DNA from: Methanobacteriota archaeon
GTDB taxonomy: Archaea; Thermoplasmatota; Poseidoniia; Poseidoniales; Poseidoniaceae
Assembly (NCBI GenBank): GCA_014240385.1
Contig: JAAZXA010000068.1
Span: forward strand, 29,090 to 93,089
DNA length: 64,000 nt
Reading direction: 5' to 3'
Part shown: positions 1,774-32,726 of the stretch, one piece after another
Layout: each line of letters opens with the position of its first letter
How positions within the stretch are numbered: position 1 is the stretch's first letter
Position numbers and translations under genes: made by a program
The notes under the pieces: model-generated
What the model was told of the DNA's origin: nothing
What the model saw: the letters and a program-made list of their open reading frames with translations, nothing else
Databases searched by the model: none

Positions 1774-2011
1774 GAGCGGTAATGATGGATCGACTTGTCA
1801 TGAAGGAGATCGCAGCGTTTAAGGGTTGCAGACTATCCGATTGTCATAGGCTTCTCGAATAGTCGAGAGCGAATCATCTTCTTGGCCCTCCTTTCCTTGA
1901 CTTAATATCCTGCATCTTACCCAGCTACTAATTACTGAGATTACTCGCTTTGGTGTCGTCCAAGGATTGGACACCTATTGCTTCAATCCGTTCATATTCG
2001 CTGTGAGCGGT
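1774..2011 (-). ncRNA. non-coding island A (candidate structured RNA or operon boundary)
   Basis: no ORF; opens with TGA-ACACCGCTCACAG (2003-2011), conserved hairpin at 1952-1975, closes with PM-ATG at 1773. Confidence 0.4.
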
Positions 2012-2013
2012 GT

Positions 2014-2382
2014 TCAGATGTAGTCATCTGAACCTTCTTCTCTGATGCCCCATCGACCAACTTCAATCTTAATTGAAGGTAGGTAATGTTCATGGCAATT
2101 CTGTATCTCGAATGCAAGCATTCCATCGGGTTCGGAATCATAAGCACCATATTTGCGCCAGACAGACAATAATGCTCGCATTTGTGTCTGTAGGCTCTTT
2201 GCAAGAAGTATTGCATTCTCTGTGTCGATATCATATCCCAAGTTGGTGGTTGCCTCGCTGTAGGTGTCCTTCGCCATGATGGTGAAAGATTCACTCAACA
2301 TTGCTCCTACTGTTTCACAATCCATGCTTGCAGTATACAGTTGCCATGTTTGGGCATCTAGTTTACACTTGTAGTGTTTCAT
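2014..2382 (-). CDS. hypothetical protein (122 aa)
   Basis: track ORF; PM-ATG at 2382. Confidence 0.75.
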   Translation of the reverse strand: MKHYKCKLDAQTWQLYTASMDCETVGAMLSESFTIMAKDTYSEATTNLGYDIDTENAILLAKSLQTQMRALLSVWRKYGAYDSEPDGMLAFEIQNCHEHYLPSIKIEVGRWGIREEGSDDYI

Positions 2383-2393
2383 GAGCGGTGTTG

Positions 2394-2900
2394 TTATGGT
2401 CCTTCCACATCAACTGTGTCGTTCCAAGTGCAACTGGTAATGTGGTCCCATTCAACTCTTTCAGCGTCTTCACCATCAACATTCCAGGTATGCTCCGTTA
2501 GAGCATTTCTGAAATCGTAGGATGCATACGATAGAGCGTTGTAAGCTTCTTCGGTAGCATCGCTGTTGGCTTTCACGCCTTTGGCGTTCGCATCTCCACT
2601 GCAGTACAGGCGACTTAACGCCCTGAATAGTAAGATTTCCAACGGTGATGGTGTCCAACTCATTGCTCGTTGGATCTCTTCTTCTATCTCTAACTCTGCT
2701 TCGTTGCGGCTGTGCGGTGAGCCTGTTTCGTTGTGGGCGACATGCAGTTGCCAGTCGTTGAGCGCCTCTAGCGCATCAGCGGGTCTATCTTTTTCTCCTA
2801 AGATGTCGCTTAATCTGTTCAAGGCCTCAGTCAAACTTGGAATCGTATGATTCGCAAGATGTTGTCCTGCCCTTGTGTTTAACCAATTTCTATTAGTCAT
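2394..2900 (-). CDS. hypothetical protein (168 aa)
   Basis: track ORF 2394..2957 trimmed to PM-ATG at 2900. Confidence 0.75.
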   Translation of the reverse strand: MTNRNWLNTRAGQHLANHTIPSLTEALNRLSDILGEKDRPADALEALNDWQLHVAHNETGSPHSRNEAELEIEEEIQRAMSWTPSPLEILLFRALSRLYCSGDANAKGVKANSDATEEAYNALSYASYDFRNALTEHTWNVDGEDAERVEWDHITSCTWNDTVDVEGP

Positions 2901-2908
2901 GAGCGGTT

Positions 2909-3856
2909 TCATGTGGGTCCATTGGATTCTCCGTATGCGCCACTTGGTAGAGTCCATCCTCCCCTGGAACGAATCAATTGTCTTTCTTCAATCCATGCCT
3001 CGACGAGGTATGTGACGCCTTCGTATGGTGTTCCTTTCTCTACCAATTCTCGGACACTCACGCCTTGCTTGATTGTAAAACCGAATTCTTCTTCGTATTT
3101 CGCAATCTTCTCCACCATTGCTGGATAGAGTTCGGCGGCTGATGCCCATTGATTCGCATTTCCGAATATGCAGGTAATGCATGACAGTCTGCCCCATCCT
3201 AGCCAGTATGCTGGATGAGCCATGATTCTGTGTTTTTCCATGATTTCCCACACTTGTTTTTCTGTCCAATCGTGAATTGGCCTCCAATGATGCACCGTTC
3301 TCAATTTTCCATGACAACGGTGATTCTCGAAGGTGTTGTAGTTGGATCGTGATTTGCTTTCTCCTGCTCTCTCACCAGTCACAACAAGGGTCTTCTTGCC
3401 CTTGAATCGTTCTTGGTTGTTGATTGCTGCGCTCATCACATCGATTTTCAAATAGGCACTGCACCATCTTACCCGCAGATCTGCGGAGACTTGTGGAAAC
3501 TTGCGCCTTGTACCATCAGGGCCTTTACCCCCTGATGAATCGATTGTTCCGTCTGGGTTCTCCCAGAACACCTTGCCTGTCGGGCTGTTATCTCGTAGCA
3601 TCTCTTGCTCGAATCCGCCATCTCTCCAACTGAAGTAGATGGGAACATTGAATTCCTTTGCGAATTCCCGACAGTAATCTTCTGTTATCGGCCAATCCAT
3701 GAATGGATCGCTTCCTGGCGCACCATCAATGAGATGGTGCCACAGTTCTATTTTCTCTTTGTCAACACCGTTGTCTAGCAGGTCAAGGAAACAAGCTGTT
3801 GAGTCCTTTCCTCCGCTAAAGGCAACGATGATGTAATCGTATTCATTTAGGTTCAT
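2909..3856 (-). CDS. PAPS reductase-family PP-loop ATPase
   Basis: PM-ATG; N-terminal PP-loop IIVAFSGGKDSTACFL; C-terminal Cys pair LSCITCIFG typical of the phage PAPS-reductase-like family. Confidence 0.75.
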   Translation of the reverse strand: MNLNEYDYIIVAFSGGKDSTACFLDLLDNGVDKEKIELWHHLIDGAPGSDPFMDWPITEDYCREFAKEFNVPIYFSWRDGGFEQEMLRDNSPTGKVFWENPDGTIDSSGGKGPDGTRRKFPQVSADLRVRWCSAYLKIDVMSAAINNQERFKGKKTLVVTGERAGESKSRSNYNTFENHRCHGKLRTVHHWRPIHDWTEKQVWEIMEKHRIMAHPAYWLGWGRLSCITCIFGNANQWASAAELYPAMVEKIAKYEEEFGFTIKQGVSVRELVEKGTPYEGVTYLVEAWIEERQLIRSRGGWTLPSGAYGESNGPT

Positions 3857-3892
3857 GAGCGGTTCATTCCGACAAGGGAATTTCCTTGTTGG

Positions 3893-4126
3893 TTATTGTA
3901 GTTGTGAAACTGTTGTTACTGCGCGTTCGCCTTTAATCACCTTCTGTAAAGCATGAAGGCTGATTACAAGGGGGATGTAGGTTTGCCCATCCCCTGTTGT
4001 GTATGTTTCACAGTTTCCCATTTCGTTTACATTGATGGAGATCTTGATTGCTCCACCTTGGTTGCTTCTTCGGGCGTAGCCCACTAGCCTAGCGGGTGCC
4101 GTATCATCTTTTTCTTCAATAGACAT
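3893..4126 (-). CDS. hypothetical protein (77 aa)
   Basis: track ORF 3893..4165 trimmed to PM-ATG at 4126. Confidence 0.7.
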   Translation of the reverse strand: MSIEEKDDTAPARLVGYARRSNQGGAIKISINVNEMGNCETYTTGDGQTYIPLVISLHALQKVIKGERAVTTVSQLQ

Positions 4127-4136
4127 GAGCGGTAAA

Positions 4137-4586
4137 TCACATTTCGAATTTAGTGATGCCATCATCTTCCGATAATCTCACTTTACGGCCAATCATTGTA
4201 GCCTGTTTTCGAAGTGCTTTGATTTTAGCGTGTTGTTCTAGCAGTCCTTCTCCATCTAGCATTGCTATGATTTGGAAGGCTTTTTTGTGCGAACGAATAC
4301 TATCCAGAATATCGTCAATCTTCGACAATAGTTCCCACATCTCGGGGCTTATCGTCATCTTGACTGCAGTTCTGTAATCGTCTGCACAGAATCCCTTTCC
4401 ATTAGTTTCTCTTCCTTTGACGAAGTGTCCGTGGCCGATGTGACCGGGGACTGGGAGTTTCGCAAAAATATTCTCTCTAAGGGTTGAGTCGTTTCTGCAT
4501 ATACAGAGGGGATTAGCCCTCATTCTCTCTCTCCCGCCAATACTCCAAGAAGCGGGGGAGAACTGTAGTGTAAATTCAGTTTTCAT
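4137..4586 (-). CDS. hypothetical protein (149 aa)
   Basis: track ORF; PM-ATG at 4586. Confidence 0.75.
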   Translation of the reverse strand: MKTEFTLQFSPASWSIGGRERMRANPLCICRNDSTLRENIFAKLPVPGHIGHGHFVKGRETNGKGFCADDYRTAVKMTISPEMWELLSKIDDILDSIRSHKKAFQIIAMLDGEGLLEQHAKIKALRKQATMIGRKVRLSEDDGITKFEM

Positions 4587-4597
4587 GAGCGGTCCCT

Positions 4598-4849
4598 TTA
4601 GGCTAGGGGATTTAATCCTTCTTTCCTGATTATTTCAGTCACTTGAAATTGGTGCCGGTGTTTGGTACAGGTTTCGTTAAGAAGGGGTTCCCAATGGGGT
4701 GCTAAAAGGGCGTTTTTGTTTCCTGGACATACTCCAGTATGTCCTTTGGTAATATTCTCTAATTCTTCCTCTGTTGCCCAGCCTTCTTCGGGCCAGGTGT
4801 GCTCTGCTTTACAGAACTTGCATCGGAAGATTGCTTTTATCTCTGCCAT
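4598..4849 (-). CDS. Cys-containing small protein (83 aa)
   Basis: track ORF; PM-ATG at 4849; CKFCKAEH...CPGN. Confidence 0.7.
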   Translation of the reverse strand: MAEIKAIFRCKFCKAEHTWPEEGWATEEELENITKGHTGVCPGNKNALLAPHWEPLLNETCTKHRHQFQVTEIIRKEGLNPLA

Positions 4850-4856
4850 GAGCGGT

Positions 4857-5087
4857 TCAATTTGTTACTTGCCAAATTGATTCTTTCCATCGTCGGCCTC
4901 TGTCGTAACATCTCTTTGTTTCGACCTTGACGAACTCTGGGTTCTTTCCCAAGACATTGTTCAATGTTTGGATTGAGGTTCCTTCTTTGGTATTCATATT
5001 GATGTGCTCAAGTATCTCATGTGTTGAGGCATTTCCTTTCTCTTGCACATACTCTATTGCCATTTTCTTGATTCTAATGGAGACCAT
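4857..5087 (-). CDS. putative winged-helix DNA-binding protein (76 aa)
   Basis: track ORF 4857..5156 trimmed to PM-ATG at 5087; wHTH call is pattern-level only. Confidence 0.6.
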   Translation of the reverse strand: MVSIRIKKMAIEYVQEKGNASTHEILEHINMNTKEGTSIQTLNNVLGKNPEFVKVETKRCYDRGRRWKESIWQVTN

Positions 5088-5095
5088 GAGCGGTT

Positions 5096-5251
5096 CTATT
5101 CGGGCTGTAGAATTTTGTATTGTAACAGGCCCACTTTCAGGAAGTGCCTGATACAATCTGATCTAGATAACCCGTGCGTATCTGCGATTTCATCAATTTG
5201 TTTCAATTGACCTTTGCTTATTCTGAGACTCACCATCCCTTTTGTTGTCAT
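5096..5251 (-). CDS. ribbon-helix-helix (CopG/Arc-like) protein (51 aa), below track cutoff
   Basis: PM-ATG at 5251; MTTKGMVSLRISKGQLKQIDEIADTHGLSRSDCIRHFLKVGL fits a strand-helix-helix pattern. Confidence 0.55.
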   Translation of the reverse strand: MTTKGMVSLRISKGQLKQIDEIADTHGLSRSDCIRHFLKVGLLQYKILQPE

Positions 5252-5260
5252 GAGCGGTGT

Positions 5261-5470
5261 TCAGGAAAAGTCTGCTCCGCAATTGTAGCATTGATCTATT
5301 CCTGTGTTTGCATGGTGGTCGCAACATTTCGGGCAGATTTCATTTTCTGCACAAGGGCAACCGTTCAAGATTCTTCGCATCTCTTTAATCCAGCAATTTA
5401 CCAAATAGCGTTGGGTTTCTGTAGTAAAGGTGTCGATGTTGTTTTCCATGTCTTCAAGTATTGTTTCCAT
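5261..5470 (-). CDS. Cys-rich zinc-finger protein (69 aa)
   Basis: track ORF 5261..5494 trimmed to PM-ATG at 5470; CPCAENEICPKCCDHH...CYNCG. Confidence 0.7.
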   Translation of the reverse strand: METILEDMENNIDTFTTETQRYLVNCWIKEMRRILNGCPCAENEICPKCCDHHANTGIDQCYNCGADFS

Positions 5471-5478
5471 GAGCGGTT

Positions 5479-6354
5479 TCAAACTGGAACCCATAGTTTC
5501 CTGCCATTAGATGAACAGGCTCGGACTAGAGAGGCTGCAGCACTTGGAGAATTGAAGGTCACATCTCGAGTAAATCGTAAATGTTTGCCGTCTTCAATTA
5601 TTGCTCCTTTTTCAAGGAGTTCTTTTCTCCATCTTTGCTCGCTTAACCTCCATGAGTCTCGGGGTTGCTTGTTTGCTGTAGATCCACGAAATACCACGAA
5701 CTTCTCGTTGCGGTATTGGCCTGTTGCTTCAACACCATTTGTTAGTGCAAGCTTCAGCATATCGTTGTCCCAGTATTCTTCTGATAGCCAGTTTCCCTTG
5801 TTATCCATGCATAGAACCTGCTTACCGCCGGCTCCTTCCCATGGACTGTTTGAAAATACGACTGATACTGACGGCCATCTTGACGCTCCGCCCTTAACAT
5901 GTGCAGGGCCGGTGAAGTCAAGTCTCCCTTTGAAGAAAACCAAATGCGAAGCATGAGGAAAAATCCAATTATGCCACATCAGGGTTTCACAGTTGGTAGG
6001 TCGGATTAGCAAGACGACGATTTCTGCATCGCCATTCTGCACAGAATCAAATGCCTTCTTTACGAACGGTTTGATTCCGTGGCTTGTTTTGCTGGAGTAT
6101 GGCGGGTTGCACCATACTATTCCTTCCCACTTCTGTTCTAGGGAGTCCATCTCAATATCGTAGTAATTCTCGCATAGGGCGTTTTCTTCGCTTGCAGCCG
6201 CATCCAATGTGAATGGGCCGAATCTGGCATTTAGAGAATCGAATATTGCTGTCGGAGTGCGCATGTCGTTTTCATCGCTATTCTTCTGCTTTCGATTCTT
6301 ATGCCAGGAGCGAACTTCCTCTGGCGTCATTTCAATTGATATCTTTTCAGACAT
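5479..6354 (-). CDS. DNA N6-adenine methyltransferase (phage Dam family) with extra C-terminal domain
   Basis: PM-ATG; FTLDAAASEENALCENYY...VWCNPPYS signature; C-terminal FNSPSAAASLVRACSSNGRKLW resembles a DUF4357-type domain (from memory). Confidence 0.8.
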   Translation of the reverse strand: MSEKISIEMTPEEVRSWHKNRKQKNSDENDMRTPTAIFDSLNARFGPFTLDAAASEENALCENYYDIEMDSLEQKWEGIVWCNPPYSSKTSHGIKPFVKKAFDSVQNGDAEIVVLLIRPTNCETLMWHNWIFPHASHLVFFKGRLDFTGPAHVKGGASRWPSVSVVFSNSPWEGAGGKQVLCMDNKGNWLSEEYWDNDMLKLALTNGVEATGQYRNEKFVVFRGSTANKQPRDSWRLSEQRWRKELLEKGAIIEDGKHLRFTRDVTFNSPSAAASLVRACSSNGRKLWVPV

Positions 6355-6361
6355 GAGCGGT

Positions 6362-6758: not shown

Positions 6759-6766
6759 GAGCGGTT

Positions 6767-11144: not shown

Positions 11145-11389
11145 GAGCGGTTAGGCCATTTACATCTCTTCCTTCTGTCCATGTTTCTCTGAACTCAAAC
11201 TCCTACCATCAGGTCGTCCGAACTGCGGATTTGCTCCTGTCTCGTTCAATGTAGGTTCTCAAGCAAAGGCCATTTTGGACTAGGTAATTATGTTCCATTG
11301 GCCGTCCCCCGGCTACTTGTTGACTTTGCGTTGGTGCCGTCCAAGGATAGGACACCTTTTGCTTATCGTCGTATTGAGCCGTGAGCGGT
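11145..11389 (-). ncRNA. non-coding island B
   Basis: opens with ACCGCTCACGG (11381-11389), conserved hairpin at 11333-11356, closes with PM-ATG at 11144; only shadow ORFs. Confidence 0.4.
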
Positions 11390-11702: not shown

Positions 11703-11780
11703 GAGGGGTGGGAGACAGGTGGATCCTATAGGGATGGGATGCCAACAGGAGGTTGTGAACACCTGTCCCCCGTGAGCGGT
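11703..11780 (-). promoter_or_regulatory. structured leader (long stem-loop between ACCGCTCAC and the start codon)
   Basis: GGGAGACAGGTG (11710-11721) pairs with CACCTGTCCCCC (11760-11771), one mismatch, 38-nt loop; the stem abuts the start codon. Confidence 0.5.
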
Positions 11781-24717: not shown

Positions 24718-25596
24718 TTAAACGCGTCTTTTGATAGCCTCATTAACTGACTTCAACCTTTCAAGGAAAGTGTCGAGGTTTTCGATTGTGTCGTCAAATT
24801 CGTTCACAATCTCGATAATTTTCCTCTCCATCTTTTTCTCCTTTACGAAGATGCTTACCATTTCAGGGGGGTCTTCACTTTGCTGGACTTGTGCTGGCAC
24901 AGGTCCTGTGGATTTCTTTCCCTTTTCTTTGCGGTGTTCAGTAAACGGTTCTATTCCGTCTTCATCTACCCAAATGGTTTCCTTCTCGGTATGCAGGATA
25001 TCCGTTTCAATGAGTCCTTCGTACATCGGCTTTTCATCGTCGTATTCTTCGATTAACTCATTTTGTAGTTCGGATTCTAATACATCCACGAAGTTTGAAT
25101 CTAATTCACGAACTTCTGTGGTTTCTTCGGTTTCCTCTGCATCTGGAACGGGTTCGGAGCAATCGAAATTACTTGAGATGTAGTCTAGCATTGCTTGTTT
25201 GGGGTCTTTCCCCTCAGCAATTGCTTTTCCTGCTACATCGAAAATATTCTCTGAATTCTCTAGTACCTGTTCGTTGTCCTTGACCCATTCCAATGCCAAT
25301 ACTTCTTGCATTAATTCTACAATGTCGGCTGGAGGGTCTTCGGGCTCTTCGGTAGTAGGTTCCTCTTCGGTTTCAGTCTCAACCTTGACTTTTGGTTCTG
25401 AAAACTTGGCTGTAAGGTAGGACGCCATTTCAAATCTCCTCTTCTGGGATGAATCGATGTCGTTAAACTGTCCTCCATCGATTGCATTGTTGAGGTAATC
25501 TTCGGCGGCTACCATGTGCCGGTCTCTCCACCCTTCGTCTGTTAGGTCGGTTAATTTGTTTATCACATAGTTCATATCATCTATGATCTCTTGCAT
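24718..25596 (-). CDS. hypothetical highly acidic protein (292 aa)
   Basis: track ORF; PM-ATG at 25596. Confidence 0.75.
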   Translation of the reverse strand: MQEIIDDMNYVINKLTDLTDEGWRDRHMVAAEDYLNNAIDGGQFNDIDSSQKRRFEMASYLTAKFSEPKVKVETETEEEPTTEEPEDPPADIVELMQEVLALEWVKDNEQVLENSENIFDVAGKAIAEGKDPKQAMLDYISSNFDCSEPVPDAEETEETTEVRELDSNFVDVLESELQNELIEEYDDEKPMYEGLIETDILHTEKETIWVDEDGIEPFTEHRKEKGKKSTGPVPAQVQQSEDPPEMVSIFVKEKKMERKIIEIVNEFDDTIENLDTFLERLKSVNEAIKRRV

Positions 25597-25606
25597 GAGC
25601 GGTTCA

Positions 25607-25813
25607 TTATTCCATTATCCTCACGAAACTTCCGAATGGTTTGCGGCATTTAGCGTGAATCCAAAGGTTCTTGGTGATGCTCAATTGGCTTCCGGGCTTA
25701 TTCTTCATTGAAATTGCCCTTTCTCCTTTTGTCATCAATTCTCCACACCATACGCAAATTTGTTGTTCTGTTTGTGAGGTTCTCCATACAATTCTGTCGT
25801 GTATTTGGGTCAT
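25607..25813 (-). CDS. zinc-finger protein (68 aa)
   Basis: track ORF 25607..25879 trimmed to PM-ATG at 25813; CVWCGE...HAKC. Confidence 0.65.
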   Translation of the reverse strand: MTQIHDRIVWRTSQTEQQICVWCGELMTKGERAISMKNKPGSQLSITKNLWIHAKCRKPFGSFVRIME

Positions 25814-25823
25814 GAGCGGTTGT

Positions 25824-26096
25824 CTATGGCAATGGTGCAACCATTTGAGCCATAGGTGGGCTTGGCGGAACAATCTCAATTAATCCTTCAATGCCTGTTG
25901 CAAGGGCTAAGAGGACCTTTCGGTGGATGGTTAAGCGGTGGATTAATTCGTCCAATACATCTGCGCCTTCCAACTCTGCTATGTTTTCCGCCAGACCATT
26001 AGTTGGATTCCACCTGTCTTGGTGCTTTTCCATTAGGTCTGCTTCGTATTTCACTAGGTCAATTCCTAGTAATTCGTGTTGATATTCTTCTAACAT
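25824..26096 (-). CDS. hypothetical protein (90 aa)
   Basis: track ORF; PM-ATG at 26096. Confidence 0.7.
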   Translation of the reverse strand: MLEEYQHELLGIDLVKYEADLMEKHQDRWNPTNGLAENIAELEGADVLDELIHRLTIHRKVLLALATGIEGLIEIVPPSPPMAQMVAPLP

Positions 26097-26340
26097 GAGC
26101 GGTTCTTTTCATTCCAGCGGGGGATGTTTCGTCACCTTGAACTTGAGCCGACCCCCATCACTTGATTCTTGCCTACAAGCAGTGGGGAGGTATCTTTCAG
26201 TGGTGGGCGAGTATCGAGCCCCTTGTTTCAAAGAACCCGGTTATATCATTGGTTGTCTCCTTTCGAGTTTCTTCGGTGTCGTCCAAGGATTGGACACCTA
26301 CTTTCTCTACTTTGGACTGCAATAAGTCCCCGTGAGCGGT
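26097..26340 (-). ncRNA. non-coding island C
   Basis: opens with TGA-ATACCGCTCACGG (26332-26340), conserved hairpin at 26275-26298, closes with PM-ATG at 26096. Confidence 0.4.
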
Positions 26341-26342
26341 AT

Positions 26343-26711
26343 TCACAAATCTCTGTCCAGCAGTAAGGACCTTAATTCACTCCAACAGTCTTGGATTGCT
26401 CCAGGGTCGGTATGTCCTTCAATTGGCCTTACTTCTGCTAAGATTGTGCTGATTAGGTCTCTTACTCGTTCATAATCTACAGTTTTGATTTCATTGTATG
26501 CATCGGCAATCTCATTTTGAATCGACTCATCGATAAACGATGATGTTGCGTCCATAGCGAGCGTTTGCAATATTATCTCTGCTGCTGATTCGGGTAAAAT
26601 CCAAATCGTTTTGGCGTGTCTTTTGCCGAGGTCGATGTAATCGACTCCTTCCTCTAGTTCATCTAGTCTTTTGGCAAATTCTTTTCCATCTACAAGATCT
26701 TCTCTTGGCAT
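26343..26711 (-). CDS. hypothetical protein (122 aa)
   Basis: track ORF 26343..26750 trimmed to PM-ATG at 26711 (CATGAGCGGA). Confidence 0.7.
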   Translation of the reverse strand: MPREDLVDGKEFAKRLDELEEGVDYIDLGKRHAKTIWILPESAAEIILQTLAMDATSSFIDESIQNEIADAYNEIKTVDYERVRDLISTILAEVRPIEGHTDPGAIQDCWSELRSLLLDRDL

Positions 26712-26753
26712 GAGCGGATTACACAAGTTAGGTGTTTCAAACTGGGGCATCGT

Positions 26754-27338
26754 TCATCCTCCACGGATGCACTCCAGTTCGCACCTTTCCCATGCTTTCT
26801 CTGAGATTCCGAGTTCCATAGCCTTCTTTCGGCTCTTTTCCTCATCCATCTCCCATTCATCTTCGTTGTGCCATACGATGTAATCTGACATGTTTCCGTC
26901 TTCTACTTCTTCTCCGTTTACCCACCAACCCCAGAAATCCATGCCGGCTTCCATAAAGGAAGCATCGACTTCGAATCCGTTGTTGTATAGGTGTTCATAG
27001 ATTGGGAAGGTAGGACTCCATGCTGAATCAAATCTGATTTCCAGTATGTTTTCGTCTGGGTCTAAATGGCAATGAGTCCGTCCGTAGTTGTTTTCGTCAA
27101 CTTCTGCGGGTATGGCCCATTTGGTTCCCCAATTGTTCACATTCCAATTTCTCCACCAAGTCGGGTCGCTATGAAGCTCCTGCTGTGATGTTTCATATTC
27201 ATCACGGTAAGCAGGTGTGTCCGGCGGTGGGATTAGGAATTGGAACAATCCAGTTTCCTTTGTTGCTTTTTCTATTTCAATTAATTTCTGTCTATCATCG
27301 TGTTTGATGATGACATGGTTGTTTGTCCAATTAGGCAT
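26754..27338 (-). CDS. DUF1281/Api92-like protein (194 aa)
   Basis: PM-ATG; MPNWTNNHVII...NWGTKWA pattern recalled from the MPNW...WGTKW plasmid/phage family (from memory). Confidence 0.55.
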   Translation of the reverse strand: MPNWTNNHVIIKHDDRQKLIEIEKATKETGLFQFLIPPPDTPAYRDEYETSQQELHSDPTWWRNWNVNNWGTKWAIPAEVDENNYGRTHCHLDPDENILEIRFDSAWSPTFPIYEHLYNNGFEVDASFMEAGMDFWGWWVNGEEVEDGNMSDYIVWHNEDEWEMDEEKSRKKAMELGISEKAWERCELECIRGG

Positions 27339-27346
27339 GAGCGGTT

Positions 27347-27799
27347 CTAAATGATGAGTTCTGCAATTTTGATAATTTCATGTTGTAAATCAACTTGATT
27401 GTTGATTTCCAAGACTTCTTCCTCGTGAATTATTCGGTCAGTCTTTGCTTTGAGGGCTTGAAGGGATTGGTCTGCTAAAACCAAACCAATCTTCAAAGCC
27501 TCAACTTCTGGGAATCCATATTCCTTCAAGTAGCCTGTAATCCAAACGACACTTCGGTTGAGGTCGTGATTTAGAGAATTGCAATAAACCATATCTGAGT
27601 ATTGTTCTAGGGATAGGTTCAAAGCTTCTCTTTTTGACAGACAGACATCTTTCATGATGAGTTCACCATCAATTATGTCATCTTCCTCTGTGTGCATGAT
27701 TTTCTCATTCCAGTAATCTTGGTAGTTTTCTTCGCCTTTTTCGTGTAAGCCGATCCAAGCGCCATACCATTCATCGATTTCTCCGGTTTCGTTTTCCAT
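27347..27799 (-). CDS. hypothetical protein (150 aa)
   Basis: track ORF; PM-ATG at 27799. Confidence 0.75.
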   Translation of the reverse strand: MENETGEIDEWYGAWIGLHEKGEENYQDYWNEKIMHTEEDDIIDGELIMKDVCLSKREALNLSLEQYSDMVYCNSLNHDLNRSVVWITGYLKEYGFPEVEALKIGLVLADQSLQALKAKTDRIIHEEEVLEINNQVDLQHEIIKIAELII

Positions 27800-27843
27800 G
27801 AGCGGTGTATTTGGATCAGTTATTCTAGATCTTCGGTTGGTTC
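27797..27843 (-). repeat. 47-nt gene-junction repeat, copy 2
   Basis: CATGAGCGGTGTATTTGGATCAGTTATTCTAGATCTTCGGTTGGTTC; covers the stop region in a different reading frame from copy 1. Confidence 0.85.
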
Positions 27844-28146
27844 GATTTCTACGATGTAGATTTCGATGCCTTTGGCCTCCAACCAGTCTAATGTGTCGTC
27901 AAAACTCCGATGGTCTTGTTTGAACTCTTCTGTCAAATCAACCATCATGCCTTGCATACATTCATGTGCAATTGCATCAGAGTTGAACGACCAATCCATA
28001 TCTCTCCAACCCATTCCGAATCCAGAACCACCATCGGTCATGTATTCGTCATATTTGTTGGCTATCTCATCCATTCGTTTGCTACGGTTGCTGAAAGTCT
28101 CGATGTTTCCATCGTCCTTCCATCTGAGCATTACTCTGTATTCCAT
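27820..28146 (-). CDS. hypothetical protein (108 aa)
   Basis: track ORF; PM-ATG at 28146. Confidence 0.75.
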   Translation of the reverse strand: MEYRVMLRWKDDGNIETFSNRSKRMDEIANKYDEYMTDGGSGFGMGWRDMDWSFNSDAIAHECMQGMMVDLTEEFKQDHRSFDDTLDWLEAKGIEIYIVEIEPTEDLE

Positions 28147-28155
28147 GAGCGGTTT

Positions 28156-28443
28156 TTAGAACTCGTTTGTAGTTCCTGTTTTGAGTAATGTGATGATTAT
28201 CCGATTAACGGCAATCATCCTATTTGTAATCGCCTTATCGTCAAAATTCTCAAAGTAAGCCATGAGCATTTCATAGTGAGGCATGTTCCATTGATGTGTC
28301 GGTAAAATAAGTTTTTCAACTGCTTCTACATCTGTTGGTTTCAAATTGTCTGATTGTCTGAGGATAGTTGAAGGGAGTTGTCCTGTTTGGTCGTTGAAAC
28401 CCCATGTTGCTTCTAACATCTTTCTAATCCATTTATCTTCCAT
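28156..28443 (-). CDS. hypothetical protein (95 aa)
   Basis: track ORF; PM-ATG at 28443. Confidence 0.7.
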   Translation of the reverse strand: MEDKWIRKMLEATWGFNDQTGQLPSTILRQSDNLKPTDVEAVEKLILPTHQWNMPHYEMLMAYFENFDDKAITNRMIAVNRIIITLLKTGTTNEF

Positions 28444-28449
28444 GAGCGG

Positions 28450-28515
28450 TTAATCCTCTTCGTATTCTTCGAAGATGTATTCTTCTGTTTCAATGCGTAA
28501 TATCAATGTCGGCAT
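28450..28515 (-). CDS. acidic micro-protein (21 aa)
   Basis: PM-ATG at 28515 (CATGAGCGGC); MPTLILRIETEEYIFEEYEED; stop TAA abuts the next PM. Confidence 0.4.
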   Translation of the reverse strand: MPTLILRIETEEYIFEEYEED

Positions 28516-28530
28516 GAGCGGCTCAAACCA

Positions 28531-28797
28531 TCAAGATGGTTTGTAGCAGTTTGATTCGTTTGTTGTTATTCTGATTGTTGAATCTGATATTGACTCGAGC
28601 AATACATCTCCATCATCCTTGACCTTAATTACTATGCAGAAATCTCCGGGCTCGATTATCTCGTCCTCGCTATTTGTTTCTGCAGCATAAAGGCTCACGA
28701 AGTCTCCGACTTCGAAGTTGTTTTGTGAAGTTGTGTAGTTCTGTTCGTATGCGTCTTCAATCAGTTTCTTTAACCGGGTTGCTACTCTTCTTCCCAT
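28531..28797 (-). CDS. hypothetical protein (88 aa)
   Basis: track ORF; PM-ATG at 28797. Confidence 0.7.
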   Translation of the reverse strand: MGRRVATRLKKLIEDAYEQNYTTSQNNFEVGDFVSLYAAETNSEDEIIEPGDFCIVIKVKDDGDVLLESISDSTIRITTNESNCYKPS

Positions 28798-28806
28798 GAG
28801 CGGTGT

Positions 28807-29073
28807 TCATTCTTCTTCAAGATCATCCCAGTGGATAAAATCTCTTTTCATTGTCCTTCTTTTGAATTTAGGGGTGTTTTCTACAAATGGGTCGGGTATT
28901 GTATTTGTCTCTTCTGGTTTGCCAAAAATATAGGCGAACCAGAAATACATCAATATCCCCATAAGAATTATCGTATAGGGGTCTTGCAGCCATTCGTAGA
29001 TGAGTGCGCATAGCAATCCTGTGCAAATTGCTGCTAGTGCGTTTCTTACATTCAATTCAATGTATTGTTCCAT
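28807..29073 (-). CDS. membrane protein (88 aa, 2 TM)
   Basis: track ORF; PM-ATG at 29073; AAICTGLLCALIY and IILMGILMYFWFAYIF. Confidence 0.7.
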   Translation of the reverse strand: MEQYIELNVRNALAAICTGLLCALIYEWLQDPYTIILMGILMYFWFAYIFGKPEETNTIPDPFVENTPKFKRRTMKRDFIHWDDLEEE

Positions 29074-29378
29074 GAGCGGTTTGTACCGGCATACTCTTGC
29101 TTAGACTGTTCGCTGGACAGTTGGCCTGTGAATCTAACTGCAACACTCCGTCTTCCCGTTTCTGTCTCCGTAGATACAATTGAGGGAAGCTGCGGGTTTG
29201 TCAATTGACTCGATGGCATCGTGGCCGAAGCCGCAGGATGCCCTAAGCAGTATCTTACCGTAGGTACTTACCCGACTCGCCAATTAGGGGTCACACCATC
29301 CATGACTGTTGGTGCCGTCCAAGGATTGGACACCGTAAGCGTATTGGTTCTGCCCCGGTTAGGTCTGTCGTGAGCGGT
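29074..29378 (-). ncRNA. non-coding island D
   Basis: opens with TAA-ACCGCTCACGA (29370-29378), conserved hairpin at 29311-29334, closes with PM-ATG at 29073. Confidence 0.4.
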
Positions 29379-29585
29379 TTAATCATTTCTAACAAGGTTG
29401 TAGACATATTCGAATAAATCTCTTCCTTGTTCTGTGAAGCCAGATGGATCATCGTCGTTTTCAACGATGTTTCCTTCTGCATCTAGGTTGTATAGTAACT
29501 TGCGTTCAATAAGTCCTTCATCAATTAAATATTCGATTACTGAATCTCCTGCATCGCAAGCTTCTCCTATGTTGTTTTCTTCCAT
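29379..29585 (-). CDS. hypothetical acidic protein (68 aa)
   Basis: track ORF; PM-ATG at 29585. Confidence 0.7.
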   Translation of the reverse strand: MEENNIGEACDAGDSVIEYLIDEGLIERKLLYNLDAEGNIVENDDDPSGFTEQGRDLFEYVYNLVRND

Positions 29586-29592
29586 GAGCGGT

Positions 29593-30459
29593 TTATGTCC
29601 AAAGACTCCTCGTCATCCTCCATATCCCTGCTTTTGCGAAGTCAGGGTGTTTTTCTATCCCTACTGCGTGTCGCCCTGTGAGCATCGCAGCCAATCCTAG
29701 GCTGTATGATCCTGCAAACGGGTCGAGCACTACATCTCCAGGATAAGTGGAGAAGCGAATAAGTTCAATCAAGAGTTCAACAGGCTTTTCTGTCTGGTGA
29801 ACCTTCTTCCTACCCATCATTCTAGAGTGGGTTTGAACATCTGCTATGCTGTTATTGATTCTTCTGCGCTTCCCTTTCGAGAAGAACAGAATTAGTTCGT
29901 GTCGTGGCCGACCATTGTAGCCAAGTGATATGACTTTCTTATCCCATACCCATTGGCTATTGAATGTGAAACCTGCGGCTTCTGCAATCTTGATTTGATT
30001 GTAGATGTAGTCGTAGGTGTCGTGCTTTGCTGCAGGCATGAAGCAAAAGAAGTGTCCATTGGGCTTCAAGACCCTAAGCATCTCCGAATACAAATCCGAA
30101 TCGATGTCTTTGGTCTCAAAATCCCATCCCTTCTTGAGATTCCTTGCTCGGGTAGTTCCCGTCTGCATTTGAGCATTCAAGATTGAATACGGAGGATCTG
30201 TGATGATAGCATCGAAGCTGTTATCTTCTAACTTTGCTAATTCATCCCAACTGTCTCCTTCAATCAAAGCGCATTGTGTGTCGCCAACTGTGGCGATGTA
30301 TATGCCTCTTGATACTCTGCGAAAGCACTTGTCTATGTTTTCATTGAGTCTTCCACGAATTGTTGTTTCCTTTTCATCAGGCAATGCTTCGTATATCTCC
30401 TTGAGATTCGATTCATTGTCTGCTAGAAATTCAACCAATCTTTCTTTCAATGTTTTCAT
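29593..30459 (-). CDS. DNA methyltransferase (beta-class N4-C/N6-A, DPPY) with N-terminal wHTH
   Basis: track ORF 29593..30480 trimmed to PM-ATG at 30459; IITDPPYS then C-terminal VVLDPFAGSYS. Confidence 0.8.
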   Translation of the reverse strand: MKTLKERLVEFLADNESNLKEIYEALPDEKETTIRGRLNENIDKCFRRVSRGIYIATVGDTQCALIEGDSWDELAKLEDNSFDAIITDPPYSILNAQMQTGTTRARNLKKGWDFETKDIDSDLYSEMLRVLKPNGHFFCFMPAAKHDTYDYIYNQIKIAEAAGFTFNSQWVWDKKVISLGYNGRPRHELILFFSKGKRRRINNSIADVQTHSRMMGRKKVHQTEKPVELLIELIRFSTYPGDVVLDPFAGSYSLGLAAMLTGRHAVGIEKHPDFAKAGIWRMTRSLWT

Positions 30460-30480
30460 GAGCGGTTCAGTTTGGGTCAA

Positions 30481-30774
30481 CTAATCTTCAGTTTGATGAG
30501 ACCAGTTTTCGGGTTGTTTGAGCCAAAGTCCAAAAAGCACCTGGGCTCCGTAGTAGGTTCCGAAAGTTTCCAAATCCGATTCCTCGTAGCCGTCTTTTGA
30601 TTCGTGAATGACATAGAACAATTGTTCCATGGTTAGATCTTCTGGTATTTTCCATTCATCTCCGTAATCGTCATTACATTCCAACAAATCGTCGTTTGCG
30701 ATTTTATCTGAGGGTGCTTCCTTAACGATTCCCGATATTGGGTTCCAGAAAGTTCCTGATATTGTTTTAGTCAT
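30481..30774 (-). CDS. hypothetical protein (97 aa)
   Basis: track ORF; PM-ATG at 30774. Confidence 0.7.
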   Translation of the reverse strand: MTKTISGTFWNPISGIVKEAPSDKIANDDLLECNDDYGDEWKIPEDLTMEQLFYVIHESKDGYEESDLETFGTYYGAQVLFGLWLKQPENWSHQTED

Positions 30775-30783
30775 GAGCGGTGT

Positions 30784-30858
30784 TCAAATTTCGTGACAAC
30801 AAGCCATGCACTTGTTTCTGCACATGGCGTATAGTCTGCATACTCTGCATTGTTCCAT
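30784..30858 (-). CDS. Cys-rich micro-protein (24 aa)
   Basis: PM-ATG at 30858; MEQCRVCRLYAMCRNKCMACCHEI; stop TGA followed by the next PM. Confidence 0.45.
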   Translation of the reverse strand: MEQCRVCRLYAMCRNKCMACCHEI

Positions 30859-30865
30859 GAGCGGT

Positions 30866-31207
30866 TTATTCACCATGATGCCATTTGAGAGCCTTTTCAT
30901 CCCAAGGCCCCCAATGCAGGTGATTTAGTACATTCTCAATTACTTCTTCATAGGTGTATTCAATAATCTCATCGGGATTGATTTTTCCTCGTCTGAAGTA
31001 AATCTCCCATGCCATCTTCACCATTCCATTTGGCCCCGATGGGTCAAAAACCCATTCGGTTAGCCATTCATCTGTGAATCTGACAAAGGCGTGGCCGTAT
31101 CGAATTCCTTCGATTTCTCCCTCGCCTGTTACTTCGGCGTGGACTAATCGGTATTCTGGATTCTCTTGAGCCAATTGAGCTGCTAATCGATAGCATTCTC
31201 CTTTCAT
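30866..31207 (-). CDS. hypothetical protein (113 aa)
   Basis: track ORF; PM-ATG at 31207. Confidence 0.75.
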   Translation of the reverse strand: MKGECYRLAAQLAQENPEYRLVHAEVTGEGEIEGIRYGHAFVRFTDEWLTEWVFDPSGPNGMVKMAWEIYFRRGKINPDEIIEYTYEEVIENVLNHLHWGPWDEKALKWHHGE

Positions 31208-31214
31208 GAGCGGT

Positions 31215-31502
31215 TCAGAATGGAAGATCTAATGCAATCTGCTTTGCGTGTTCTGGTGCATGTTTCGCTATTACTTCCCAAAATGGGCTTTCTGTAATTG
31301 CGTCTTTGCCTCCCGTATCACTCCAAGTTGGAGGAAGGGTTGTTTGGTTTCCATTCTTGTCGAGAAGCCATGCTTGAATGAAATAACTTGTTTCGCCTGT
31401 TATTCCCCCACGGTCAAATCCGTAGGCGAGGTTCCAGTTTTGCTGTTCTTCTATGTTTTTCAATACATTCAGGTTCTCTGCATATCCTAGATATCTAGTC
31501 AT
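31215..31502 (-). CDS. hypothetical protein (95 aa)
   Basis: track ORF 31215..31571 trimmed to PM-ATG at 31502. Confidence 0.7.
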   Translation of the reverse strand: MTRYLGYAENLNVLKNIEEQQNWNLAYGFDRGGITGETSYFIQAWLLDKNGNQTTLPPTWSDTGGKDAITESPFWEVIAKHAPEHAKQIALDLPF

Positions 31503-31509
31503 GAGCGGT

Positions 31510-31581
31510 TCATTGGTTCGGGCATTTGCCGCATCCATTGTCTGGACAATCGTTGCATGTCCTTGCTTCATCTTCTTCCAT
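31510..31581 (-). CDS. Cys-rich micro-protein (23 aa)
   Basis: PM-ATG at 31581; MEEDEARTCNDCPDNGCGKCPNQ; stop TGA abuts the next PM. Confidence 0.45.
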   Translation of the reverse strand: MEEDEARTCNDCPDNGCGKCPNQ

Positions 31582-31589
31582 GAGCGGTT

Positions 31590-32003
31590 TTACCAGTCAT
31601 ACACCTCAATGATGTTCTTGACTGCGTGTGATTTCATCGTTGTGAAACTGTTTGGGTCAAGATTCTCTTCAAGTGTTTCGACCAATAATCCAAGTAGTTT
31701 GTTGGTGTCCTCTCTCAACTTGTTACTGCGTCTTTTGAGAGCAATATTGATTTCGTCAATCTCATGTTGAGGGCGTGGCCTCCATGCTTGTGCCTTTCTG
31801 AGTTGTTCCTTGAGCGACTCGACTTCAACTTGTAGTTCGTAAATCGGGTTGCCTTCGTCCAACGGTTCACCGTAGTTTTGAGTTGTTAGTTTCTCTTCGA
31901 GCCTTTGCTCAGCGTCTTCAACCCAACTTGGATCTTCTTCCTTTTGGCCTAATGCATTTGCATCAGGGTTTAGTCCTTCAATCTGTTCTTTCAATGATTG
32001 CAT
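31590..32003 (-). CDS. hypothetical coiled-coil protein (137 aa)
   Basis: track ORF; PM-ATG at 32003. Confidence 0.75.
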   Translation of the reverse strand: MQSLKEQIEGLNPDANALGQKEEDPSWVEDAEQRLEEKLTTQNYGEPLDEGNPIYELQVEVESLKEQLRKAQAWRPRPQHEIDEINIALKRRSNKLREDTNKLLGLLVETLEENLDPNSFTTMKSHAVKNIIEVYDW

Positions 32004-32011
32004 GAGCGGTT

Positions 32012-32368
32012 CTAAGGCGTCAACTCTATTTTCTTTGAGAGTTTTTCTGCACCATTAGTCATCCAAGGTTCAGGTTTGACTGATTGTAGCCACTTATCGG
32101 GAGTTGGAATGAATCCAAAGTCTTCCATAAGGTGCTGTTCAACAATCAACCTCGTCAATACCTGCTTGCCGTTGCTGTTTTCGATTGTTAATCCGAATAT
32201 AGCTTCAGCGTCTCCTATCGCTAAGGTGCTGTGCCTAAATATTCTAGACACGAAATGCCATCTGTGTTCTTTGGGAGCATCTATCCATTTGTGGATATCG
32301 ATGTAATCTTCCATTTTTCCTCCGTATTTTCTTGCTGATGATTCAGCATGATGTACATAAGTTGCCAT
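32012..32368 (-). CDS. hypothetical protein (118 aa)
   Basis: track ORF 32012..32509 trimmed to PM-ATG at 32368. Confidence 0.7.
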   Translation of the reverse strand: MATYVHHAESSARKYGGKMEDYIDIHKWIDAPKEHRWHFVSRIFRHSTLAIGDAEAIFGLTIENSNGKQVLTRLIVEQHLMEDFGFIPTPDKWLQSVKPEPWMTNGAEKLSKKIELTP

Positions 32369-32726
32369 GAGCGGTAAATAGGCATTACACCATTGCGCCA
32401 GCACAAGGCCTGCACTTATCCTAGACTTTCTGAGATGTTGAGGCCAAACCGACCAGTTCATCATCGAGGGCTTTCGGGGGGGCGTGTCGACTTCCTTGCT
32501 TGGAGCCACTTTACCCTAGCCCACCGATTTGGGAACGGTATGTCCTGTTCATGCCTTTAGCCGTCCAAATGGAACTAACTGCCGATCCGTAGATGGGTCT
32601 GGGCTTTGGCAATCCTTTGGATTCCGTCATTCCACTCAGCGTGGGTCTAGTGAGAGGTAAGTTGGGGGAAACCAAAAAGAAAACCCAACCGCCGTTGCAG
32701 TTGGGTTTGTTTGATTTGTGAGCGGC
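32369..32726 (-). ncRNA. non-coding island E (terminator plus about 300 nt of unassigned sequence)
   Basis: opens with GCCGCTCACAA (32718-32726), then a terminator-like hairpin; lacks the conserved 24-nt hairpin; closes with PM-ATG at 32368. Confidence 0.35.
32669..32716. terminator. hairpin with T-rich tails on both strands
   Basis: AACCCAAC (32682-32689) pairs with GTTGGGTT (32700-32707); minus-sense tail TTTTCTTTTTGG; shares a CCCAACCGC core with the 37463 hairpin. Confidence 0.55.

Follow-up and report, generated by a model that had tools for sequence, protein, structure and literature searches.

In an uncultured virus or plasmid-like element of marine archaea, four non-coding islands, which we call A-D, most likely are cassettes for a folded non-coding RNA of ~230-300 bases, not described before. 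(The window is the whole stretch of DNA that we analysed, 64,000 nucleotides.) These elements exist, are non-coding, are conserved, and have covarying stems. On balance, we favor the view that they are four paralogous structured-RNA cassettes whose products would act in trans, after release from the surrounding train of genes, through a hairpin that is recognized by its sequence.

Islands in a punctuated gene train

The gene train runs in one direction for ~40 kb. An earlier note on this DNA described five islands without open reading frames in the train, and we found all five where it placed them, each opening with CCGCTCAC and each ending at the next gene's ACCGCTCATG. The note also had every island open with a stop codon followed at once by the motif. 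All five do have a stop, then 1-17 nt, and then CCGCTCAC, but in island B the two do not abut, as 17 nt separate the upstream stop from the motif. The islands are indeed non-coding: the frame of the motif gives just 8-57 codons up to a stop. They are always in gene sense (the minus strand of the window) and are scattered along the train, although the start of the train has none. We count each unit as starting at the A of its opening motif and as ending one base short of the next CCGCTCATG:

1780-2004, minus strand: unit A, a 225-nt non-coding RNA cassette
11151-11382, minus strand: unit B, a 232-nt non-coding RNA cassette
26103-26333, minus strand: unit C, a 231-nt cassette that diverges most from the others
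29080-29371, minus strand: unit D, a 292-nt non-coding RNA cassette
32375-32719, minus strand: island E, of a different kind (CCGCTCAC, then a terminator-like hairpin, then ~300 nt of non-coding sequence)
11709-11773, minus strand: a short sixth CAC unit, with a 12-bp hairpin (GGGGGACAGGUG...CACCUGUCUCCC) and then a gene starting with CCCCTCATG

Across the window, there are 96 copies of CCGCTCA on the minus strand and just 4 on the plus strand. The minus-strand sites comprise 87 gene starts with CCGCTCATG and 9 copies of CCGCTCAC. The motif is also found upstream of one tRNA and of terminators, so it fits punctuation at the RNA level better than a translation signal.

The shared 24-nt element and the fold around it

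Islands A-D share a 24-nt element. The pattern given in the earlier note has exactly four matches, at the positions that it reported and with the element on the minus strand (there were no matches in 100 dinucleotide shuffles):

1952-1975, minus strand: 24-nt element of A, GGUGUCCAAUCCUUGGACGACACC, a pattern match
11333-11356, minus strand: 24-nt element of B, GGUGUCCUAUCCUUGGACGGCACC, a pattern match
26275-26298, minus strand: 24-nt element of C, a pattern match
29311-29334, minus strand: 24-nt element of D, a pattern match

The element starts 26-37 nt past the A of the motif. Its sequence in B is identical in six orthologues of B. In D', the orthologue of D, it is AGUGUCCUAUCCUUGGACGACACA and the outer G-C pair is gone. 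Overall, 20 of the 24 positions are invariant, including 6 of the 7 loop bases, in copies whose flanks can no longer be aligned. The proposed geometry (helix, 3-nt bulge, 4-bp helix, 7-nt loop) has one or two near-isoenergetic rivals among the folds of the 24-mer; a competing fold has a 6-bp stem and a similar energy. As DNA, the 24-bp site reads GGTGTC-N12-GACACC; it begins and ends with 6-bp arms that form a perfect inverted repeat.

In each unit, the element lies between the two strands of a stem, P1, which opens one base after the motif: bases +2 to +5 pair with the four bases preceding GGU. The P1 sequences are CAGC:GCUG, CGGC:GCCG, CGAC:GUCG, and CUGA:UUGG. In D', P1 is 10 bp long (CUGAACCGCA:UGCGGUUUGG). 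In unit C it is weak, at 3 bp (CGG:CCG), with an alternative in which UCCCCCG, close to the 3' end, is the partner of 5' CGGGGA. The P1 strands of A, B, and D, and the 3' rod of B, are:

2000-2003, minus strand: P1 5' strand of A (CAGC), which pairs with GCUG at 1922-1925; junction GGUAAG at 1916-1921
11378-11381, minus strand: P1 5' strand of B (CGGC), which pairs with GCCG at 11310-11313
29367-29370, minus strand: P1 5' strand of D (CGAC), which pairs with GUCG at 29273-29276; junction GGUAAG at 29267-29272
11151-11303, minus strand: 3' rod of B, with closing stem GGCC(A):(U)GGCC within 11295-11303 and 11151-11159

In A, B, and D', inner stems P1.1 and P1.2 stack the 24-nt element onto a 5' rod of 95-125 nt, with the element at its tip. 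A single-stranded GGUAAG junction follows the 5' rod, except in C. (In B the junction is GGGGAC, at 11304-11309, and its orthologues have GGUAAA.) Then comes a second rod, which is specific to each paralogue and closes 3-6 nt ahead of the next ACCGCTCATG. Besides its closing stem, the 3' rod of B has the inner stems ACAU:AUGU, UCCA:UGGA, CCUUUGCUU:AAG..CAGAGG, and CCUAC:GUAGG, and the apical hairpin is variable.

This fold accounts for some of the looser similarities in the earlier note. The words AGTAGCYGGG (A and B) and GGGTAAG (A and D) are real, and P1 is formed by CAC(R)G on one side and AGTAGCYGGG on the other. These strands covary, with R=G alongside Y=C in B and R=A alongside Y=T in A. 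The note had also likened CCTATGAC in island A to a box upstream of the tRNAs. The word in island A lacks the ~50-nt repeat context that is present at 40818, 41211, and 42061, and it is probably a chance 8-mer.

Conservation and covariation in related elements

Among Tara/JGI contigs, we found orthologues of B (L135-L139 and L260) and of D (L260, 1287-1618), and none of unit C. The alignments, each of which rests on 2-6 distinct sequences, show conserved blocks and variable apical hairpins. The B orthologues differ by indels of 1 and 5 nt, which rules out a conserved reading frame. Of the 59 pairs in B, 96.5% are paired across the alignment and 6 changed on both sides, as compared to 1.6 in shuffles (0/500). 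When the partners were slid, there were 0-2 double changes. The closing stem of B is GGCU:AGCC in the orthologues, which amounts to two compensatory pairs. In the two-sequence alignment of D, 9 of 44 predicted pairs have a compensatory change. For instance, stem P2 is GUACC:GGUAC in D and GUGCG:CGCAC in its orthologue, and a hairpin changes from GGC-UUCG-GCC to GAC-UUCG-GUC. P1 covaries at 3 of its 4 pairs. So the compensatory changes that the earlier note suggested looking for are present in the surrounding stems (P1, P2, and internal hairpins), but not in the 24-nt hairpin, whose pairs show neither variation nor covariation across six distinct copies.

A covariance model of the B family matched A over its full length (38.5 bits, E=2e-8). 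It also matched D' (E=7e-6) and D, and it matched the 5' domain only of C (22 bits, E=3.9e-4). Within 268 kb, the model had no further match. Two caveats are that the folding energies of single sequences are unremarkable (z of -0.3 to -1.8) and that, in the B alignment, the antisense strand folds as well as the sense strand (-46.1 versus -44.2 kcal/mol), so the strand is assigned from context only.

The genes flanking the islands are not paralogous, and in the relatives, where gene order is heavily shuffled, B and D have other neighbors than in the window. Hence, the islands are not untranslated regions of particular genes. Rather, the cassettes behave as genes of the train do: they are kept in related elements, with different neighbors. 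In distant lineages, there are islands with the same layout, in which CCGCTCAC is followed by a P1 of 5-7 bp (CUACC:GGUAG, CUGUCC:GGACAG, or UCACCCU:AGGGUGA) and the internal module is different.

The islands had no match in Rfam or in annotated phage records and no relative in GTDB genomes, and the papers that we consulted do not mention an island RNA. Among the 91 proteins of the window, we recognized no RNA-binding or RNA-processing protein.

Possible roles

Each unit starts at the A of ACCGCTCA, the punctuation ahead of every protein gene. The train may be transcribed into long RNAs that are then resolved at the motif, and each island would come free as a stable RNA of its own. Recognition of the invariant hairpin would depend on its sequence, most likely through a single viral or host protein that serves all the units, and the divergent rods could give each paralogue its own properties. 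We infer action as RNA rather than as single-stranded DNA, separate release, and a protein that reads the hairpin.

We considered several other explanations. That the islands are plain operon boundaries (a terminator plus a promoter), as the earlier note had allowed, or decayed genes is extremely improbable. Island E does fit the first idea: it has a strong intrinsic-terminator-like site (a 12-bp stem and a T run, 32708-32674), and its layout of motif, CACA, hairpin, and T run recurs in two other lineages (L261 at 3551 and L129 at 12371). Its non-coding tail of ~300 nt is conserved in blocks. But in islands A-D there is neither a G+C stem with a T run nor any other terminator-like site. Motif-led starts in the train, which is where we scanned, have no TATA/BRE-like signal ahead of them, and the genes downstream of islands open with the same motif as every other gene. 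Also, conservation of the islands goes along with compensatory changes, and decayed genes would lose the invariant 24-mer and the covarying stems. A-D are therefore discrete non-coding elements, most likely at the RNA level, and not simple terminator-promoter gaps. A cis-acting role in the long transcript, either in processive antitermination (as for HK022 put or lambda nut) or as barriers or entry sites for RNases, is unlikely but deserves more weight. The islands' constant gene sense within a 40-kb one-directional train would suit it, and shuffled neighbors are compatible with a cis role that does not depend on position. Two islands lie in tandem on contig L126. Each unit adjoins the next gene's motif, whose ACC could pair with the junction's GGU; this pairing is invariant and so uninformative. 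However, put and nut lie just downstream of a promoter, while the islands are spread out, with none at the start of the train. Conserved, paralogue-specific rods in 230-290 nt far exceed what a stability hairpin needs, and an island on L273 has the GGGUAAG word under another motif, CTGAAC.

The remaining explanations center on the 24-mer. It might be a decoy against host defence or host machinery, mimicking a host RNA (a CRISPR repeat, or a protein's site on rRNA or mRNA) and titrating that RNA's binding protein. A short, invariant hairpin present in several copies on otherwise divergent viral RNAs would fit, and 24 nt is within the size range of archaeal CRISPR repeats. Yet the copies are single rather than arrayed, Poseidoniales seldom carry CRISPR, Rfam gave no match, and the pattern GGTGTCCNNTCCTTGGACNNCACC has no match across 185,579 species (one genome each, from GTDB), so we consider decoys to be improbable. 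It is improbable, too, that the host's tRNA-splicing endonuclease (EndA) treats the hairpin as a relaxed bulge-helix-loop substrate, cutting it to process or circularize the island RNA. The host must possess EndA, since a tRNA on the virus or plasmid-like element has an intron of ~64 nt. The right stagger is present in one fold of the 24-mer, where a 3-bp helix is followed by a 3-nt bulge in the 3' strand and then by 4 bp of helix and a loop of 7 nt, and the tRNA intron contains UGUCC-N6-GGACGG, as the 24-mer does. Against this, the chance expectation for the intron match, a fifth, is ~0.15, the 6-bp-stem alternative is equally stable, the outer helix is only 3 bp (2 bp in D'), and a cut at the tip of the rod would remove ~11 nt, with no evident product. 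EndA recognizes shape and not sequence, which leaves the invariance of 20 of 24 positions unexplained, and the covariation is in the surrounding stems rather than in the hairpin's own pairs. The earlier note's link to this enzyme thus has no specific support. At the DNA level, a dimeric protein (a serine recombinase or ribbon-helix-helix protein) might bind the 24-bp site, or the islands might fold as single-stranded DNA and serve as priming or recombination sites. The inverted repeat, the equal folding of both strands, the shuffled gene order, and the presence of genes for a resolvase-type recombinase (57564-58385) and an RHH protein all point that way. But a duplex site needs neither a covarying P1 nor a place at the tip of P1, P1.1, and P1.2, as in A, B, and D'. 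Also, a 3-nt insertion makes the arm spacing asymmetric, the 20 bp between TGTC and GACA are shorter than known resolvase sites (25-34 bp), and all copies and unit borders follow the sense of transcription. We rate this idea as very improbable.

Trans-acting RNAs would place the cassettes alongside virus-borne non-coding RNAs such as adenovirus VA RNA, phi29 packaging RNA, and herpesvirus EBER/HSUR. These are also rod-like, 160-300 nt long, and frequently have paralogues, with a conserved protein-binding module (putative in our units) on a variable scaffold. Unlike them, the units have an archaeal host, are embedded in a train of protein genes whose start motif they use, and, as far as we could see, lack their own promoter or terminator (the promoter scan covered motif-led starts in the train); there is no relationship in sequence or in Rfam. 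Archaeal bulge-helix-bulge and bulge-helix-loop substrates resemble one fold of the 24-mer in the stagger of a 3-nt bulge, a 4-bp helix, and a loop, but that family is defined by shape alone and is found at exon/intron or processing-stem junctions, whereas the 24-mer is invariant in sequence and sits at the tip of a rod. Like the islands, put and nut are folded RNA signals in long viral transcription units, with a linear box and then a conserved hairpin. However, they are bacterial, promoter-adjacent, and 60-70 nt long, and CCGCTCA precedes every gene, not just the islands, and changes between lineages. RNA anti-CRISPRs and solitary repeat units also have an isolated short hairpin that is repeated in a viral genome, but the island hairpin matches no repeat in the 185,579 species genomes and is within a much larger conserved fold. 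Finally, in mitochondrial tRNA punctuation, as in this train, folded non-coding RNAs alternate with protein genes in one transcript with common boundaries, and the train has a motif-led tRNA as well. The mitochondrial boundary is the tRNA fold, while the boundary in the train is a 7-nt sequence word, a putative cleavage site.

Conserved non-coding cassettes with covarying stems

Islands A to D, gene-free stretches within a train of minus-strand genes, form a family of structured RNA cassettes that is new, real, and non-trivial; the element that carries them is marine, archaeal, and uncultured. Besides being conserved and non-coding, the cassettes have covarying stems and are independent of their neighbors. 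The coordinates in the earlier note were all correct. As it had described, each island runs from an opening CCGCTCAC to the next ACCGCTCATG, and islands A to D share a 24-nt element that matches four times in the window (versus 0 matches in 100 shuffles).

Islands and their 24-nt elements
1780-2004, minus strand: island A, element at 1952-1975
11151-11382, minus strand: island B, element at 11333-11356
26103-26333, minus strand: island C, element at 26275-26298
29080-29371, minus strand: island D, element at 29311-29334
32375-32719, minus strand: island E

By scanning a metagenome collection with the degenerate 24-mer, we found five Tara contigs, each with an ortholog of B (B'). A protein-guided look-up led to another related locus (L260), which has orthologs of B, D, and E (B', D', and E'). 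The identity of B and B' is about 71%, with long identical blocks, and their indels of 1 and 5 nt leave no common reading frame. The hairpin at the apex varies (B', CCC-UUCG-GGG; B, UCCG-cagu-UCGGA). D and D' have in common the 24-nt hairpin, GGGUAAGU, and the block in which a UUCG hairpin lies. The neighbors of B' and D' are homologs of window genes that are distant from B and D, so the islands move as independent cassettes and are not UTRs of particular genes. There is no paralogy among the genes that flank the islands. Searching IMG/VR with exact and relaxed hairpin patterns gave either no match or chance matches in unrelated phages, and annotated phage records gave nothing by megablast, tblastn, or blastn.

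For the B family, RNAalifold predicts a 5' stem that pairs the first bases after the motif with the bases before GGG and encloses the 24-mer. This is followed by a long 3' rod, with a variable hairpin at its apex and a closing stem that ends just 5' of the next motif. The earlier note had proposed looking for compensatory changes in homologous islands, and these are seen in B/B', in D/D', and in the 5' stem (P1) of the paralogs, in alignments that each contain few distinct sequences.

Base pairing and covariation by alignment
B family (A3, 5 sequences): 59 pairs, with 96.5% of cells paired; changes on both sides in 6 pairs, versus 1.6 in shuffles (0/500) and 0-2 with the partners slid
D and D' (A4, 2 sequences): 44 pairs, 9 compensatory; four of the 9 fall in the basal nine pairs of the 3' rod (GUACC:GGUAC versus GUGCG:CGCAC), and one is in GGC-UUCG-GCC versus GAC-UUCG-GUC
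Paralogs (A13, 6 sequences, spliced): 11 pairs; P1 pairs changed on both sides in 3/4; hairpin pairs all invariant

(A13 is a spliced, N-padded alignment, which we used because MAFFT misplaces P1 when aligning the 5' domains of the paralogs (A11). MAFFT likewise misplaces P1 in islands of the L126 type (A8).)

In the paralogs, P1 always joins positions +2 to +5 with the four bases preceding GGU (A, CAGC:GCUG; B, CGGC:GCCG; D, CGAC:GUCG; D', CUGA:UUGG). Its length ranges from 3 bp in C to 10 bp in D'. Three features define the proposed family. The motif plus C, followed by a P1 that runs from +2 to the bases preceding GGU, is found in A, B, D, B', and D' (4-10 bp). The core GUGUCC-N-AUCCUUGGACG-N-CAC lies between the P1 strands in all six distinct copies. 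And a 3' rod closes 3-6 nt 5' of the next motif, with compensatory changes in B/B' and D/D', and by eye in A; in C it is not clear-cut. Searching 268 kb with a covariance model built on the B family gives A at full length (E = 2e-8), D' (E = 7e-6), D, and C, and nothing else. The earlier note had described the rest of the islands as largely divergent, and indeed the alignment of A to D keeps only the motifs and the 24-mer; the shared words CAC(R)G and AGTAGCYGGG turn out to be strands of P1. The Rfam search that it had suggested gave no match for the islands: in the window, Rfam 15 reports only three tRNAs at the gathering score and nothing in the islands at E ≤ 1, and it reports nothing in four related loci that bear islands.

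The start motif and the other islands

The train consists of ~90 tightly packed minus-strand genes, from ~41 kb down to 1 bp (1-41300). CCGCTCA, the motif that punctuates it, occurs 96 times on the minus strand of the window versus 4 times on the plus strand. In 87 of the 96 minus-strand copies, it forms ACCGCTCATG, with the ATG serving as the start codon, and the stop codon of the preceding gene is mostly 1-5 nt 5' of the motif. There is no TATA- or BRE-like signal before these 87 motif-led starts (information is at most 0.1 bit at -50 to -13), so the train does not as a rule rely on such a signal. Genes beyond the train are led by an ordinary Shine-Dalgarno sequence. The other nine minus-strand copies have C in place of TG.

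Motif copies with C in place of TG, minus strand
1780-2004, 11151-11382, 26103-26333, 29080-29371, and 32375-32719: the five islands (A to E)
11709-11773: a short hairpin unit
~95 nt 5' of 41038-41168: before an intron-bearing tRNA
A gene whose ATG is 9 nt 3' of the motif
Within an ORF: one copy, probably fortuitous

In distant relatives (L132-134 and L270-273), CTGACC or CTGAAC replaces CCGCTC before the ATG. In three lineages, a copy of the motif also follows the last stop codon and precedes the terminator. Since it heads a tRNA and precedes terminators, a role in processing or punctuation fits better than a purely translational one. More broadly, that non-coding units, one tRNA, and terminators are headed by the motif argues for action at the level of the transcript and not of translation alone. 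This suggests that these elements have an unusual expression program, unlike that of their Shine-Dalgarno-led genes. The cassettes would be released at the motif from long transcripts.

Two local arrangements of the motif are worth recording. 5' of gene 38073 (38067-38110, minus strand), an inverted repeat of the motif about 22 nt away could base-pair with it (GAGCGGGG ... CCGCTCA), which is possibly a gene-specific switch that hides the motif. And the short CCGCTCAC unit at about 11709-11779 (minus strand) is a 12-bp hairpin; the next gene starts with CCCCTCATG, a variant of the motif that differs by one base.

Island E combines an operon end with something else, and is outside the family of A to D. 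It begins with the motif, after which come a stretch rich in A and a 12-bp stem followed by a T run. This opening part is identical in L260, and the layout is repeated in two other relatives (L261 and L129). The ~300 nt after the terminator show block conservation with L260.

Relatives that use the CCGCTC motif (L126, L265-267, L268, and L261) have islands of the same layout, with CCGCTCAC and then a P1 of 5-7 bp. In place of the module of A to D, these carry another conserved one, GAUYAAGGUCUAG..GAAGAA. This second type of island (GAUYAAGGUCUAG..GAAGAAGUCYAGUUGC) is seen at L126 141-704, L265 2472-3041, and L261 17848-18280, with two tandem copies in L126. A third type has an identical 36-nt block, CGGGGAGGTCGACACACGCAAAAGTGCAGACCCCGA, in L261 (18728-19063) and L273 (9951-10320). 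The start motifs of these two loci differ, and the stems under the block differ throughout yet still pair (by eye). E (32375-32670) has GTCGACAC and GGGTAAAG in common with this third type, that is, with islands of other lineages.

The 24-nt hairpin and what the cassettes may do

The six distinct copies of the 24-mer differ only at positions 1, 8, 20, and 24. The base pairs of the hairpin never vary among them, and covariation is silent on its fold. In A, B, and D', the element caps the 5' rod, and in every unit it lies inside P1. That it is so invariant, 6 of the 7 loop bases included, while the scaffolds around it have diverged argues for a sequence-specific reader. Probably, the cassettes act as RNA in the sense of the genes, with the hairpin recruiting one common factor. 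Among the 91 proteins of the window, we recognized no candidate for this partner.

The rivals to this reading are all less likely; in falling order of our confidence, they are a cis-acting element of the transcript, a decoy of a host RNA, a substrate of the archaeal splicing endonuclease (EndA), a site that acts at the level of DNA, and a plain operon boundary. Against a mimic of a host RNA or a CRISPR repeat, the degenerate 24-mer has 0 matches in 185,579 species genomes (the true host may be outside this collection). The EndA explanation was proposed in the earlier note from the bulge-helix-loop geometry. That geometry can be drawn (GGU:ACC, bulge GRC, GUCC:GGAC, and a 7-nt loop), and the tRNA intron, with UGUCC-N6-GGACGG, is a fifth match to the sub-pattern (~0.15 expected by chance). 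However, ViennaRNA gives at least three folds of the 24-mer within ~1.5 kcal/mol, and a 6-bp stem and UCCAA:UUGGA are of similar energy to the bulge-helix-loop. Given these competing folds, the site at the tip of a rod, and the invariant sequence, we see no specific support for EndA and consider it unlikely. Two cuts would presumably remove ~11 nt of loop and stem, and the hairpin offers no junction at which cleavage and ligation would give a defined product.

Two cautions apply to the predicted stems: the single-sequence folding energies of the islands are ordinary, and folding favors neither the sense nor the antisense strand. The second of these, together with the compensating changes in the stems, bears on a DNA-level site, which we rank lower. 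An operon boundary, the alternative in the earlier note, holds for E, with its terminator stem and T run, but not for A to D, which lack a terminator-like hairpin. In a terminator scan of 25000-34000, the only strong site was in E (32708-32681, 12 bp), with none in C or D, and direct reading of A and B shows no stem followed by a T run.

We can also imagine a broader scheme, which we think is unlikely: the islands would form the RNA part of an expression system specific to the virus, in which the hexamer that abuts every start codon and varies with lineage (CCGCTC, CTGACC, or CTGAAC) marks the sites at which long transcripts are split into leaderless mRNAs, tRNAs, and stable structured RNAs. 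The island RNAs, with their invariant apical modules, would be cofactors or regulators of this machinery. In that system, the islands could be scaffolds for a factor that reads the motif, for instance, or switches that hide the next motif by GGU:ACC pairing.

Several more specific identities were rejected. A kink-turn (L7Ae site) does not fit by direct reading: A-C is opposite G-G-U after the bulge, and there are no G.A pairs. For a retron (msr/msd), there is no reverse transcriptase domain among 91 + 20 window proteins, and the flanking genes are small ORFans. By eye, we rejected the kink-turn, the sarcin-ricin motif, a tRNA-like arm, and the retron as family-wide features; AGUA/GAA beside P1 is found only in A and B'. 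The islands are not guides complementary to the motif, as they lack GAGCGG. Complementarity of the loop to island E (AAGGAUUG) is expected ~2 times by chance, and the word is not kept in E'. Finally, copies of the 24-mer hold a Shine-Dalgarno-like GGUG with a UUG 8-9 nt downstream, which leads to ORFs of 7-29 codons that all start M-D-(D/G)-T. Coding was rejected because the peptides differ (MDGTNAKST... in B versus MDGTSEK in B') and because GGUG and UUG are buried in the stem.

The element and its relatives

The element is archaeal and is virus- or plasmid-like. Its tRNA at 41038-41168 (minus strand) has an intron of ~64 nt in the anticodon loop and an encoded CCA, and was detected by Rfam but missed by ARAGORN. 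About 95 nt 5' of this tRNA is CCGCTCACA. The gene content includes phage-type PAPS reductases, methylases, and a resolvase. The relatives come from marine metagenomes, as contigs no longer than 129 kb, and some have a protein of ~840 amino acids with RNA polymerase Rpb1 domain 5 (L129 12730-15255 and L132 13606-16125). (A window protein of the same length, at 44592-47111, is a double glycosyltransferase instead.) Neither the 24-mer nor a relative of the 377-amino-acid protein is present in the GTDB genomes, so these give no hint of a provirus or a host.

Group D of the magroviruses is described as having RNA polymerase A and a resolvase and no capsid gene (PMC5434244; PMC10160649). Our element is one of a group of marine, Poseidoniales-associated elements of ~129 kb that resemble magrovirus group D, and its features are consistent with group D. 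The papers we examined, these two among them, do not mention the motif or any non-coding RNA, and we found no structured RNA described in them for this group of elements.

Here, a multi-copy RNA family supported by covariation occupies the train much as an ordinary gene cassette would, under the same start signal as its genes. To our knowledge, archaeal viruses have yielded few structured RNAs. The host group is among the most abundant archaea of the surface ocean. The family is a concrete target for metatranscriptome mapping in the Tara Oceans data, and the partner of the hairpin, if found, might bring to light a new viral RNP or a mechanism of host takeover.

Compared with relatives that are 70-90% identical (L260, L136, and L138), the gene order of the window is thoroughly shuffled, down to single motif-bounded cassettes, RNA cassettes included. 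We also noticed a repeat of ~50 nt on the minus strand (GGSCCTASGGYYCCTATGACCT..CTAATGAGGA) at 40800-40860, 41190-41250, and 42040-42100, that is, 5' of gene 40778, 5' of the tRNA, and at 42061. Copies of CCTATGAC are found in island A and before tRNA-Lys, outside the context of this repeat.
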